From Escherichia coli (lineage in GTDB: Bacteria; Pseudomonadota; Gammaproteobacteria; Enterobacterales; Enterobacteriaceae), in assembly GCF_003334305.1 (NCBI RefSeq), contig NZ_QOWS01000025.1: a DNA stretch of 64,000 nucleotides; one strand, given 5' to 3'. The position numbers were made by a program. This document shows positions 21,101-30,100 of the stretch, piece by piece (position 1 is the first letter of the stretch; the number at the start of each line of letters is the position of its first letter).

Positions 21101-24100
21101 CATAATCACGCCAGGCGACAGCGACCGGTCGAACAATATACGGGTCTAATACGTTGAAGTTGAAGTTGTACATGGTGCGGTTGAACCCTTCTAACGGGTC
21201 AGAACGCCCTTGCTGATCTGTACCGGAACTCGCACACCCCACCAGAAGCGTAGTTCCCAGAGCAAGCGCCGACAGGCGAAGCTTCATAAATGTCTCCCTG
21301 TTTTTTTTATGGCTTATGCAGTTTGCCATCCATGACGGAACGATACCGTATCCGCCTGTTTAGGTGTGGGCGATTGTAACAGCACGTCAACTGATGTCCA
21401 GACGCCCTGATTTGCTGATTTGATCATAGCCTGGTAATCGCCGCCCTGTAGGCTACTTGATTCTATAGAAACAGAAAAAGGCAAACGCAGCCTTTTCTAC
21501 ATTTTCAGAGTAACTCCCGCCAGTTGCGAGCAAAAAAGCCGCTACGCTTTAGCTATACGTGCTAATTCAAGAGAAGAGACCATGGACAACGACAAAATTG
21601 ATCAACACAGCGACGAAATTGAAGTTGAGAGCGAAGAAAAAGAGCGCGGCAAAAAAATAGAAATAGATGAAGACCGACTCCCCTCCCGGGCGATGGCAAT
21701 TCATGAGCATATCCGCCAGGATGGTGAAAAAGAGCTGGAACGCGACGCAATGGCGCTACTGTGGTCAGCCATTGCGGCGGGTCTGTCGATGGGCGCTTCG
21801 TTACTGGCAAAAGGGATATTTCATGTCGAACTGGAAGGTGTGCCGGGCAGCTTCTTACTGGAGAATCTCGGTTATACCTTTGGTTTTATTATCGTCATTA
21901 TGGCCCGCCAGCAATTATTTACCGAAAACACCGTGACTGCGGTACTACCCGTCATGCAAAAACCGACAATGAGCAACGTCGGCTTACTTATGCGATTATG
22001 GGGCGTCGTGCTGCTGGGTAATATTCTCGGGACAGGTATTGCTGCATGGGCATTTGAATATATGCCTATCTTCAATGAAGAAACTCGCGATGCATTTGTC
22101 AAAATCGGCATGGATGTGATGAAGAACACCCCCAGCGAGATGTTTGCCAACGCGATCATTTCCGGCTGGCTGATCGCCACTATGGTATGGATGTTTCCTG
22201 CAGCAGGTGCGGCAAAGATTGTGGTGATTATATTGATGACCTGGCTTATTGCCCTGGGTGACACCACCCATATCGTGGTCGGTTCTGTTGAAATCCTCTA
22301 TCTGGTGTTTAACGGTACGCTGCACTGGAGCGATTTCATCTGGCCCTTCGCACTACCTACTTTAGCGGGGAACATCTGCGGCGGCACCTTTATCTTCGCG
22401 TTAATGAGTCATGCACAGATTCGTAACGACATGAGCAACAAGCGTAAAGCAGAAGCACGCCAAAAAGCAGAACGTGCGGAAAACATTAAGAAAAATGATA
22501 AAAACCCGGCATAAATGGCGAGGGTTTAAGCAATCGAGCGGCAGCGTACTTACCCCGCACTCCATTAGCGGGTATACTCATGCCGCATTGTCCTCTTAGT
22601 TAAATGGATATAACGAGCCCCTCCTAAGGGCTAATTGCAGGTTCGATTCCTGCAGGGGACACCAGATACCCTTCAAACGAAATCTACCTTCACCCCGTAA
22701 AAGATGGGTTTGGCAGCACACTTGCCTTATATCTACTCATTTTTACTGCAACAGGTTGAAATCTCAGCACTGTCAGAAAGCGCTGATGACTAAACAGCCC
22801 TGGGCCGGGCGATGTAACCATCACACAGAATCCTGATAGCGAAATATGGCGTGACTCGATACTTCACTCCGCAATGCATTCCTTGATGAATTCGCAGGAC
22901 CGTGATACACGGGACAGGTCACTGAATGACGACAATGTCCTGGAAATCAGCGAACCGCGCATCTGAAGTACATTTGAGCGACTGTACCAGAACATGAATG
23001 AGGCGTTTGGATTAGGCGATTATTAGCAGGGCTAAGCATTTTACTATTATTATTTTCCGGTTGAGGGATATAGAGCTATCGACAACAACCGGAAAAAGTT
23101 TACGTCTATATTGCTGAAGGTACAGGCGTTTCCATAACTATTTGCTCGCGTTTTTTACTCAAGAAGAAAATGCCAAATAGCAACATCAGGCAGACAATAC
23201 CCGAAATTGCGAAGAAAACTGTCTGGTAGCCTGCGTGGTCAAAGAGTATCCCAGTCGGCGTTGAAAGCAGCACAATCCCAAGCGAACTGGCAATTTGAAA
23301 ACCAATCAGAAAGATCGTCGACGACAGGCGCTTATCAAAGTTTGCCACGCTGTATTTGAAGACGGATATGACACAAAGTGGAACCTCAATGGCATGTAAC
23401 AACTTCACTAATGAAATAATCCAGGGGTTAACGAACAGCGCGCAGGAAAGGATACGCAACGCCATAATCACAACTCCGATAAGTAATGCATTTTTTGGCC
23501 CTACCCGATTCACAAAGAAAGGAATAATCGCCATGCACAGCGCTTCGAGTACCACCTGGAATGAGTTGAGATAACCATACAGGCGCGTTCCTACATCGTG
23601 TGATTCGAATAAACCTGAATAAAAGACAGGAAAAAGTTGTTGATCAAAAATGTTATAGAAAGACCACGTCCCCACAATAAATATGACGAAAACCCAGAAG
23701 TTTCGATCCTTGAAAACTGCGATAAAATCCTCTTTTTTTACCCCTCCCGCATCTGCCGCTACGCACTGGTGATCCTTATCTTTAAAACGCATGTTGATCA
23801 TCATAAATACAGCGCCAAATAGCGAGACCAACCAGAAGTTGATATGGGGACTGATACTAAAAAATATGCCGGCAAAGAACGCGCCAATAGCATAGCCAAA
23901 AGATCCCCAGGCGCGCGCTGTTCCATATTCGAAATGAAAATTTCGCGCCATTTTTTCGGTGAAGCTATCAAGCAAACCGCATCCCGCCAGATACCCCAAG
24001 CCAAAAAATAGCGCCCCCAGAATTAGACCTACAGAAAAATTGCTTTGCAGTAACGGTTCATAAACGTAAATCATAAACGGTCCGGTCAAGACCAGGATGA

Positions 24101-27100: not shown

Positions 27101-30100
27101 GTGGAAGCTGAATTGTGGTCAGCGGCGGTAAAAACAGATGCCCGACGCCAACCAGATTATCAAAGCCCATTACGGCGACATCCTGCGGGATACGTACCCC
27201 CTTCGCCAGGAGAACCTGATAAGCGACAAAGGCTGCGCGATCGTTACCACATATCAGAACATCAAAATCTGGTTTGCCCGGTTTGAAGTGGGCATTGAGT
27301 AAACTTGCGAGATCGGTGTAGTGATCATCACCTGTTGCCATGTGAAATTGTTTCACCTCAGCCAGATCTCGTCCAGCATCACGCCAGGCCTGCTCAAATC
27401 CCTGCCGACGATACCCTGTTGCCAACGCACTTTCCGGTAGCCAGAAGCATAACGGTTGACGATAGCCCGCCGCGAGCAAATGCTGTGTTGATTCATATTG
27501 TGCAGTGTAATCATCAGGGATATAACTGGGTAACGCTGGGTCATCCGCCACACAGTTCGCCAATACAATATTTTCACCATACAGAGACTCAGGCAGCGTG
27601 ATATGTCGCAGCCCCATTGTAGTATAGATAATGCCATCCGGACGGTGGGCAAGCAGCTGACGTGCCGCGCGGGCAGCGTCATCTTCAGAAAAAATATTGA
27701 TTAAAAAACTATTCCAGCCGAACTCGCTGGCGGTTTGCTCAATGGCAAGCAGAATATCAACAGAGAAAGGAGTGGTAGCCGTGTCCTGCGCCAGCACGGC
27801 GAGAGTCGACGGCTTACGTCCTTGAGCGCGCATCTTACGGGCGGAAAGATCAGGAACATAATTCAGGGTCTGGATTGCCTGCAATACGCGGTCACGCGTT
27901 GCAGGACGCACAGATTCTGCATTATGCATCACCCGGGAGACTGTCATCATCGACACTCCCGCCAGGCGTGCGACATCCTTTAATGAAGCCATACCCAAGC
28001 CGTTTGCCGTAAAACGGGCACTGTAGCAGAAACAGACGTCACTGGCGAGATCCAACGATATTCTCAACGCCCTATCACCCAACACGGCAATACAATAAAA
28101 AATAACAATAATTGCCGGATAATTGTACTCAATTCCGCCTCTGTTCTCGCCAACGAGTAACCATATAGGCAAGTAAGTAAAACATGCCAACTGGCATCGC
28201 CAACCTGGAGAAGAAAATATAAATATGGATCATTGTGCTGCCGCTGTATCCCGACATCAGCCCGGAAATTATTGCGATTGCTATCGGTTCAGGTGCAATT
28301 GGCTGCACGATCGTTACGGACTCGCTTTTCTGGCTAGTGAAGCAATATTGCGGCGCTACGCTCAATGAAACATTTAAATACTATACGACAGCGACATTTA
28401 TCGCTTCAGTCGTCGCTCTGGCGGGCACATTCCTGCTGTCATTTATCATCTAAGCGCAAAGAGACGTACTATGGAAAACGCTAAAATGAACTCGCTCATC
28501 GCCCAGTATCCGTTGGTAAAGGAGCTGGTTGCTCTTAAAGAAACCACCTGGTTTAATCCTGGCACGACCTCATTGGCTGAAGGTTTACCTTATGTTGGCC
28601 TGACCGAACAGGATGTTCAGGACGCCCATGCGCGCTTATCCCGTTTTGCACCCTATCTGGCAAAAGCATTTCCTGAAACTGCTGCCACTGGGGGGATTAT
28701 TGAATCAGAACTGGTTGCCATTCCAGCTATGCAAAAACGGCTGGAAAAAGAATATCAGCAACCGATCAGCGGGCAACTGTTACTGAAAAAAGATAGCCAT
28801 TTGCCCATTTCCGGCTCCATAAAAGCACGCGGCGGGATTTATGAAGTCCTGGCACACGCAGAAAAACTGGCTCTGGAAGCGGGGTTGCTGACGCTTGATG
28901 ATGACTACAGCAAACTGCTTTCTCCGGAGTTTAAACAGTTCTTTAGCCAATACAGCATTGCTGTGGGCTCAACCGGAAATCTGGGGTTATCAATCGGCAT
29001 TATGAGCGCCCGCATTGGCTTTAAGGTGACAGTTCATATGTCTGCTGATGCCCGGGCATGGAAAAAAGCGAAACTGCGCAGCCATGGCGTTACGGTCGTG
29101 GAATATGAGCAAGATTATGGTGTTGCCGTCGAGGAAGGACGTAAAGCAGCGCAGTCTGACCCGAACTGTTTCTTTATTGATGACGAAAATTCCCGCACGT
29201 TGTTCCTTGGGTATTCCGTCGCTGGCCAGCGTCTTAAAGCGCAATTTGCCCAGCAAGGCCGTATCGTCGATGCTGATAACCCTCTGTTTGTCTATCTGCC
29301 GTGTGGTGTTGGCGGTGGTCCTGGTGGCGTCGCATTCGGGCTTAAACTGGCGTTTGGCGATCATGTTCACTGCTTTTTTGCCGAACCAACGCACTCCCCT
29401 TGTATGTTGTTAGGCGTCCATACAGGATTACACGATCAGATTTCTGTTCAGGATATTGGTATCGACAACCTTACCGCAGCGGATGGCCTTGCAGTTGGTC
29501 GCGCATCAGGCTTTGTCGGGCGGGCAATGGAGCGTCTGCTGGATGGCTTCTATACCCTTAGCGATCAAACCATGTATGACATGCTTGGCTGGCTGGCGCA
29601 GGAAGAAGGTATTCGTCTTGAACCTTCGGCACTGGCGGGTATGGCCGGACCTCAGCGCGTGTGTGCATCAGTAAGTTACCAACAGATGCACGGTTTCAGC
29701 GCAGAACAACTGCGTAATACCACTCATCTGGTGTGGGCGACGGGAGGTGGAATGGTGCCGGAAGAAGAGATGAATCAATATCTGGCAAAAGGCCGTTAAT
29801 AACGTTTCAACGCAGCATCGCAATCCTTTCCCTGGGTGAGCGATGCTGCCGATGGCGCAGACTTAAGATCCCCGGTCTTACCCGCTATAACCCCCTCCTT
29901 TTATCATCACCCAACGCCTTTCGCTGTAAACGGCGGTTTCGCAAACCAAACCAAAACCGTAAGTAAGATAAAAGCAATAGCCGCCATACGGAAAATCTCA
30001 TTTGCAGAAATAGAAAGTGACTGCTGGGTTATTTCATTATTAATTTCATTAAGAACTCCTGAAAGCGAACCATAGTATTTATCCATAATTTGTGACGATG

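Follow-up and report, generated by a model that had tools for sequence, protein, structure and literature searches.

The stretch analysed here, hereafter the window, comprises 64,000 nucleotides of contig NZ_QOWS01000025.1 from the Escherichia coli assembly GCF_003334305.1, and the feature under study is a sucrose catabolism (csc) cluster lying between the tRNA gene argW and the D-serine ammonia-lyase gene dsdA. To judge from gene homology and position, this locus is almost certainly the chromosomal csc regulon of E. coli in its standard argW-dsdA position. Its genes cscB, cscK, cscA and cscR are all full length with no internal stops, and they lie in 5,571 bp of DNA (22665-28235) without a counterpart in K-12. 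A sequence-only reading of the window had proposed a sucrose system independent of the phosphotransferase system (PTS) and made up of a permease, a fructokinase, an invertase and a LacI-type repressor, and each of these components was recovered, at a level well beyond chance, by matches to NCBIfam and Pfam models and to known structures. The homology to csc, which had been set beforehand as refutable, also held, with the DNA that carries the four open reading frames (ORFs) being 99.9-100% identical to RefSeq E. coli loci annotated cscA, cscB, cscK and cscR. The csc allele at this site is already known and ordinary. The regulon is reportedly treated in Bockmann 1992, Jahreis 2002, and Moritz and Welch 2006, and the replacement that placed it here is described in Jahreis 2002, Moritz and Welch 2006, Connolly 2015 and O'Boyle 2020.

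The csc Genes and Their Products

The permease gene cscB (23106-24353, minus strand, 415 amino acids) is predicted to encode a LacY-type sucrose:H+ symporter. Its product scores 594 bits against the oligosaccharide transporter model TIGR00882 of the major facilitator superfamily (MFS; cut-off 220) and matches the LacY structure 2y5y over residues 11-399 (E=1.5e-63). CscB and LacY can be aligned over about 390 residues, with the columns of R144, R302, H322 and E325 conserved and LacY E126 facing an aspartate, but the two differ in substrate, which is galactosides for LacY and sucrose for CscB.

On the same strand and 71 bp upstream of cscB lies cscK (24425-25339, 304 amino acids), the product of which is predicted to be a PfkB-family fructokinase. 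It exceeds the cut-off of the NCBIfam fructokinase equivalog NF006957 (507.7 against 450 bits), matches the bacterial fructokinase structure 5ey7 (E=3.3e-95) and carries the PfkB motifs GGAPAN and DSTGAGD in its translation.

The gene cscA (25556-26989, plus strand, 477 amino acids) is divergent from cscKB and probably encodes a cytoplasmic invertase of family GH32. Its translation contains the GH32 catalytic motifs WMNDPNG, FRDP and WECPDF, scores 479.7 bits against the GH32 'scrB_fam' model TIGR01322 (cut-off 356.4) and matches the GH32 hydrolase structure 7vco (E=3e-172). Two in-frame ATG codons are available at its 5' end, one at 25556 (the RefSeq start, 477 amino acids, beginning MTQSRL) and one at 25547, where the mechanically called ORF of 480 amino acids starts.

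Downstream of cscA and convergent with it is cscR (26997-27992, minus strand, 331 amino acids), which is predicted to encode a LacI-family repressor. CscR matches the Pfam LacI helix-turn-helix (E=2e-21) and Peripla_BP_1 (E=1e-92) domains, the LacI-type regulator structure 6ndi (E=2e-114) and LacI-family repressor models of NCBIfam with E-values down to 1e-39. The mechanical ORF runs on to a TTG at 28190, an extension that is an artefact, the RefSeq annotation and the LacI helix-turn-helix both placing the start at 27992. A CscR mutation is given as Q132* in the text and as Q57* in a table of one publication (PMC3938415). Residue 132 is T and residue 57 is Q in the window, and the mismatch is taken here as an inconsistency within that publication and not as a feature of the window.

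Layout and Boundaries of the Locus

The junctions of the csc segment were placed by blastn against K-12 MG1655 2,464,000-2,481,000, an interval that includes both of them. Homology to K-12 is lost after 22664 and regained at 28236. The left block (20280-22664, 98.95% identity) ends at K-12 position 2,466,383, which is the final base of argW, and the right block (28236-30269, 99.85% identity) begins at K-12 position 2,478,967 (dsdX nucleotide 1121). The sequence-only reading had drawn the feature as 22665-28453; its start stands, but the foreign DNA stops at 28235 and the remainder (28236-28453) is the native 3' remnant of dsdX. The tRNA-Arg(CCU) gene argW itself (22590-22664, plus strand) was found by ARAGORN as the sole tRNA gene across the window and by Rfam as RF00005 with 63.4 bits, and Rfam detected no further RNA family in 20000-31000. 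The csc genes had been described as directly following argW. They do lie downstream of it, but a spacer of 441 bp precedes cscB.

The K-12 gene map agrees with the layout that had been assumed for that strain, namely a prophage after argW, and dsdC and dsdX ahead of dsdA. After argW, K-12 carries the 10.2-kb CPS-53 cryptic prophage, its 15-bp attR copy (pawZ) and a 95-bp spacer, beyond which follow dsdC, the dsdC-dsdX control region and dsdX. If the prophage is left aside, the 5,571-bp csc block substitutes for 2,368 bp of the K-12-type allele, that is, for the argW-distal 95-bp spacer, dsdC, the dsdC-dsdX control region and the first 1,120 nucleotides of dsdX. Compared with the dsdCXA allele of K-12 and uropathogenic E. 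coli, the window shares the flanks at 99-99.9% (yfdC to argW on the left; the dsdX 3' end, dsdA and emrY on the right), and it differs in having csc where K-12 has CPS-53, dsdC and a full-length dsdX. At the junctions the csc-side and K-12-side sequences are dissimilar, with no repeat and no useful microhomology between them.

The cluster has the same four genes in the same order and orientation as the csc regulons of EC3132, E. coli W and O157:H7 EDL933, with the same two 12-bp operators and the same location between argW and a truncated dsdX, and it shows no substantial difference from them. Across thousands of genomes csc is at least 98% identical to the window at the nucleotide level.

The dsd Genes

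On the right-hand side, the dsd system has lost its regulator and most of its permease. K-12 DsdC has no match by tblastn anywhere in the 64-kb window, which agrees with the earlier statement that dsdC is missing. The stretch 28235-28453 matches the DsdX model NF007395 only at positions 374-445 of 445, and the corresponding remnant (28236-28453, plus strand, codons 374-445) is 98.6% identical by tblastn to residues 374-445 of K-12 DsdX and is marked in RefSeq as partial, with its N-terminus missing. Having neither start nor promoter, this 72-codon remnant is a pseudogene. A dsdC or a full-length dsdX near dsdA would have spoken against the replacement, and tblastn found only DsdX 374-445 in the window.

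The dsdA gene (28471-29799, plus strand, 442 amino acids) is intact, its product scoring 813.6 bits against TIGR02035 and being 99.8% identical to K-12 DsdA, yet the locus has lost the gene of its activator, dsdC, along with the promoter region of dsdXA and the greater part of dsdX. Enterohemorrhagic E. coli (EHEC) with the same configuration has a non-functional D-serine system and finds D-serine toxic, and it expresses dsdA only after deletions that bring the gene under the control of the cscA promoter or of a different promoter upstream (PMC7486766). Between cscR and the right junction at 28235/28236 lies the cscR upstream region (27993-28235), which contains at 28116-28123 the 8-bp repeat CCGGATAA, a repeat that borders one of the spontaneous EHEC deletions (PMC7486766).

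The Control Region Between cscK and cscA

The 216-bp region between the divergent cscKB and cscA genes (25340-25555) contains two identical and perfect 12-bp palindromes, GTTAACGTTAAC, at 25446-25457 and 25510-25521. These are the only two occurrences of this sequence in the 64 kb, and two or more copies were found in 0 of 100 shuffles. In its account of the csc operators, PMC11251922 attributes to Jahreis 2002 two copies of a 12-bp inverted repeat to which CscR binds as operators, and the two palindromes correspond to these published sites. It is further reported that a mutation in one CscR operator raises cscA expression and that a Crp-cAMP site lies beside the -35 region (PMC11251922), and two cAMP-CRP sites have been described in the bidirectional csc promoter (PMC3938415). 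By eye, against the consensus TGTGA-N6-TCACA, a CRP-like site, TGTGATATTCATCGCA, can be recognized at 25462-25477. A simple scan for promoters and terminators was uninformative, yielding 2 promoter-like sites where 9 were expected by chance.

Distribution of the csc Allele in E. coli

The frequency of the allele was determined among 5,426 complete E. coli genomes, a genome being counted when at least 80% of the query was covered (for the csc query, in one place). The csc arrangement is present in 2,646 of them and the alternative K-12 segment, consisting of dsdC and the 5' part of dsdX, in 2,698. The two counts total 5,344 and, with the overlap between the sets judged from this sum only, they are consistent with a near-exclusive dimorphism. 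The csc locus is thus a roughly 50:50 dimorphism of the species and not a rare accessory island. The best match to the segment 22400-28600 is E. coli strain A7 (NZ_CP028767.1), which is 100% identical to it. By phylogroup, almost every strain of B1, D and E is reported to carry csc, few of B2 do and none of A or F (PMC11251922). The sequence-only reading had recognized the arrangement as the known replacement of dsdCX by csc, and this substitution at argW is indeed published (PMC4366372, PMC7486766, PMC3032704, PMC11251922).

The argW-cscB spacer is invariably inherited together with csc, being present in 2,645 genomes, practically the same number as csc itself. A 300-bp probe across the argW/spacer junction was found in 1,415 genomes, so that roughly half of the approximately 2,645 csc-positive genomes have argW abutting the spacer as it does here. 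Other csc-positive genomes have an insertion between argW and the spacer, for example those of O157:H7. EDL933 and other O157:H7 strains carry a prophage remnant at this point, unlike the window, which has none. In O157:H7 PNUSAE146744, a P22-like prophage remnant of about 8 kb is located between argW and an attR copy and is followed by the same csc spacer; it contains intS, DNA-ejection genes, a tail-needle pseudogene and a recombinase family gene, the coordinates of which appear to fit those of z3622 (PMC7486766).

The csc/dsd locus is a textbook case of metabolic dimorphism in E. coli, in which sucrose use stands against D-serine detoxification, and it has ties to niche and pathotype. Intestinal strains positive for the locus of enterocyte effacement (LEE) tend to carry csc and to be sensitive to D-serine, and uropathogens retain dsdCXA. 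The allele found here assigns the strain of the window to the csc-positive, dsdCX-negative half of E. coli and thereby allows its phenotypes to be predicted; it adds no new biology.

Predicted Pathway and Phenotype

A pathway can be proposed from homology and from the published work on EC3132 and E. coli W. CscB would import sucrose by proton symport, CscA would hydrolyse the unphosphorylated sucrose in the cytoplasm to glucose and fructose, CscK would phosphorylate the fructose, and the glucose would be taken by the host Glk. CscR would repress the divergent cscKB and cscA promoters through the two identical 12-bp palindromic operators until sucrose is abundant, and cAMP-CRP would also be required, bringing the system under catabolite control.

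By extrapolation from EC3132, E. coli W and EDL933, the strain is predicted to show no induction of dsdA, to be D-serine sensitive and to fail to grow on D-serine. Its growth on sucrose should be slow or should occur at high concentration only. Wild-type csc requires more than 1% sucrose for induction, and mutation at positions L51, C327, Q353, L363 and F371 of CscB permits growth on low sucrose (PMC3938415). Since CscB of the window has the wild-type residue at each of these five positions, the ordinary slow, high-sucrose phenotype is expected. The sequence-only reading had spoken of sucrose-positive E. coli; the term needs qualification in that growth is usually slow or dependent on high sucrose, 23 of 29 isolates with csc only having been slow or very slow and none of them fast (PMC11251922).

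Some points weigh against the assignment of the locus to a standard csc regulon with the phenotypes just described. CscR falls below every curated NCBIfam cut-off, so its assignment is made by family-level homology together with locus identity. A second copy of dsdCXA, as reported for K1 strains, might be present outside the 64-kb window. Finally, among 29 isolates with csc and without the scr system, 5 failed to grow on sucrose, and in four of these no lesion of the locus was obvious (PMC11251922).

The last of these observations, together with the need for more than 1% sucrose for induction, bears on the possibility that the csc genes are present but cryptic, a silent and non-functional relic as in Shigella or in the non-growing csc-positive isolates. 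We regard this as improbable, though it is the alternative that fares best. All four ORFs are full length, the catalytic motifs are in place, no insertion sequence (IS) interrupts the genes, neither the operators nor the CRP site is damaged, and many strains have an identical locus; moreover, E. coli W and EC3132, which carry csc, grow on sucrose (PMC3032704, PMC3938415).

The argW-cscB Spacer and the Question of Mobility

The 441-bp spacer (22665-23105), which extends from argW to the stop codon of cscB, has no homology to K-12 by blastn and contains no intact ORF, its ORFs reaching 44 amino acids at most. Within it, at 22731-23017 on the plus strand, lies a decayed DUF4942 gene fragment that corresponds to residues ~38-151 of a protein of 280 amino acids and is disrupted by a frameshift and an in-frame TGA. 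A 50-amino-acid ORF annotated in the spacer of O157:H7 matches Pfam PF13708 (E=2.9e-5), and in tblastn a full-length 280-amino-acid DUF4942 protein aligns over its residues 76-151 across the in-frame TGA (51% identity, E=4e-20) and over its residues 38-65 in a different frame. By blastn, full-length DUF4942 genes with a nucleotide identity of 71-77% to the fragment are present in 1,324 further genomes. Such a gene closes a conserved module of CP4-type islands in Nissle 1917 and in strain VE-T9, the order of the module being DUF932, antirestriction, RadC, DUF987, CbeA, CbtA, DUF5983, DUF957 and DUF4942, and in VE-T9 it is the last gene of the island, adjoining a tRNA-Ser gene.

These similarities suggest that a CP4-type genomic island survives as a fossil in the DUF4942 fragment and that csc lies beside island remains at argW. 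It can be speculated further, as a tentative scenario that we consider possible rather than probable, that the fragment is all that is left of an integrative island of the CP4 type that once occupied argW, that csc entered on or beside this island, and that a deletion then ran from within the island into dsdX, creating the single csc/dsdX junction seen throughout the species. If true, this island history would give a concrete origin to the exchange of dsdCX for csc, which is usually put down to a 'recombination hotspot'. The island-gene fossil is the one mildly new detail of the locus.

It is very improbable that the csc segment is at present a mobile element, whether an integrative island or a moron carried by a phage, inserted at the attachment site of argW. 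Such an element would agree with the left boundary falling exactly at the 3' end of argW, with the DUF4942 island-gene fragment in the spacer, with four GenBank 'phage' records in which csc begins exactly at the argW boundary and with PHROG matches to csc-like genes. Against it, there is no integrase, excisionase, transposase, IS or phage ORF between argW and dsdA, and the 17-nucleotide 3' end of argW is single-copy in the window even with 2 mismatches allowed, leaving no attR-like second copy. The argW phage attachment site is therefore unoccupied here, and the earlier statement that no phage gene is present holds. The right end of the segment lies inside dsdX and has no repeat, and the GC content of the segment matches that of the flanks. 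Of the traits of a tRNA-integrated island or prophage, then, neither an integrase by the tRNA gene nor a direct repeat of the tRNA 3' end was found, and only the decayed DUF4942 fragment remains.

The four 'phage' records (ON470594.1, ON470608.1, ON470622.1 and ON470589.1) contain 4.3-5.6 kb of csc, all starting at window position 22665; in one of them csc comes after an excisionase, at the end of the record, and another contains argW itself and an integrase. In all likelihood these records are prophage calls extending into the host flank and not instances of phage-borne csc. The full csc block is also found in the PLSDB records NZ_OL790696.1 (4.80 Mb), NZ_CP141089.1 (4.94 Mb), CP061244.1 (1.41 Mb) and CP137936.1 (365 kb). 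These 'plasmid' records with a full-length match, 0.37-4.9 Mb in size, are mostly evident chromosomes, and the multi-megabase records among them look like mislabelled chromosomes. The remaining plasmid matches are to a GH32 gene at about 73% only.

Comparison with the scr PTS Regulon

The scr PTS regulon of Klebsiella and some B2 E. coli resembles csc in having a GH32 hydrolase, a fructokinase and a LacI-type repressor, but it differs in its PTS EIIBC component and porin, in the hydrolysis of sucrose-6-phosphate, in its genome site and in the fast growth that it confers. The idea that the cluster is a PTS-type scr system, with sucrose entering in phosphorylated form, draws on the RefSeq/PGAP name of CscA ('sucrose-6-phosphate hydrolase'), on its best NCBIfam match (TIGR01322, 'scrB_fam') and on the name of its closest structure (7vco, sucrose-6-phosphate hydrolase), yet its probability is close to nil, given that no ORF for scrA (PTS EIIBC) or scrY (porin) exists between argW and dsdA, that the sole transporter is a LacY-type MFS symporter delivering unphosphorylated sucrose, and that the locus shares at least 99.9% identity with loci bearing a csc annotation, scr and csc loci being distinct. 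PGAP labels CscK 'aminoimidazole riboside kinase'. A different pathway, as might be read from this name and from 'sucrose-6-phosphate hydrolase', was also considered and rejected, both names being family-level labels.

The Remainder of the Window

Outside the interval aligned to K-12 by blastn, the window was assessed by comparing the RefSeq annotation of the coordinate-identical stretch of strain A7 with the K-12 gene tables and the ORFs of the window; the gene coordinates of A7 are identical to the window ORFs over the 64 kb. By this annotation comparison every gene from yfcL to pdeA, csc aside, has a K-12 counterpart in the same order. The cluster had been called the largest accessory feature in the window, and relative to K-12 it is, with all other A7-annotated genes having K-12 counterparts.

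A few smaller differences from K-12 were observed. The CPS-53 prophage of K-12 is not present in the window. Downstream of nupC, at ~63511-63560, there is no IS186 between nupC and pdeA, where K-12 has IS186C. The gene yfdF (19292-20350, plus strand) has a GC content of 0.32-0.38 against about 0.49 in its flanks and no NCBIfam match, but as it also occurs in K-12 it is not strain-specific. The fimbrial usher gene yfcU (8646-11288, minus strand), a pseudogene in K-12 MG1655, is an intact ORF of 880 amino acids both here and in A7.

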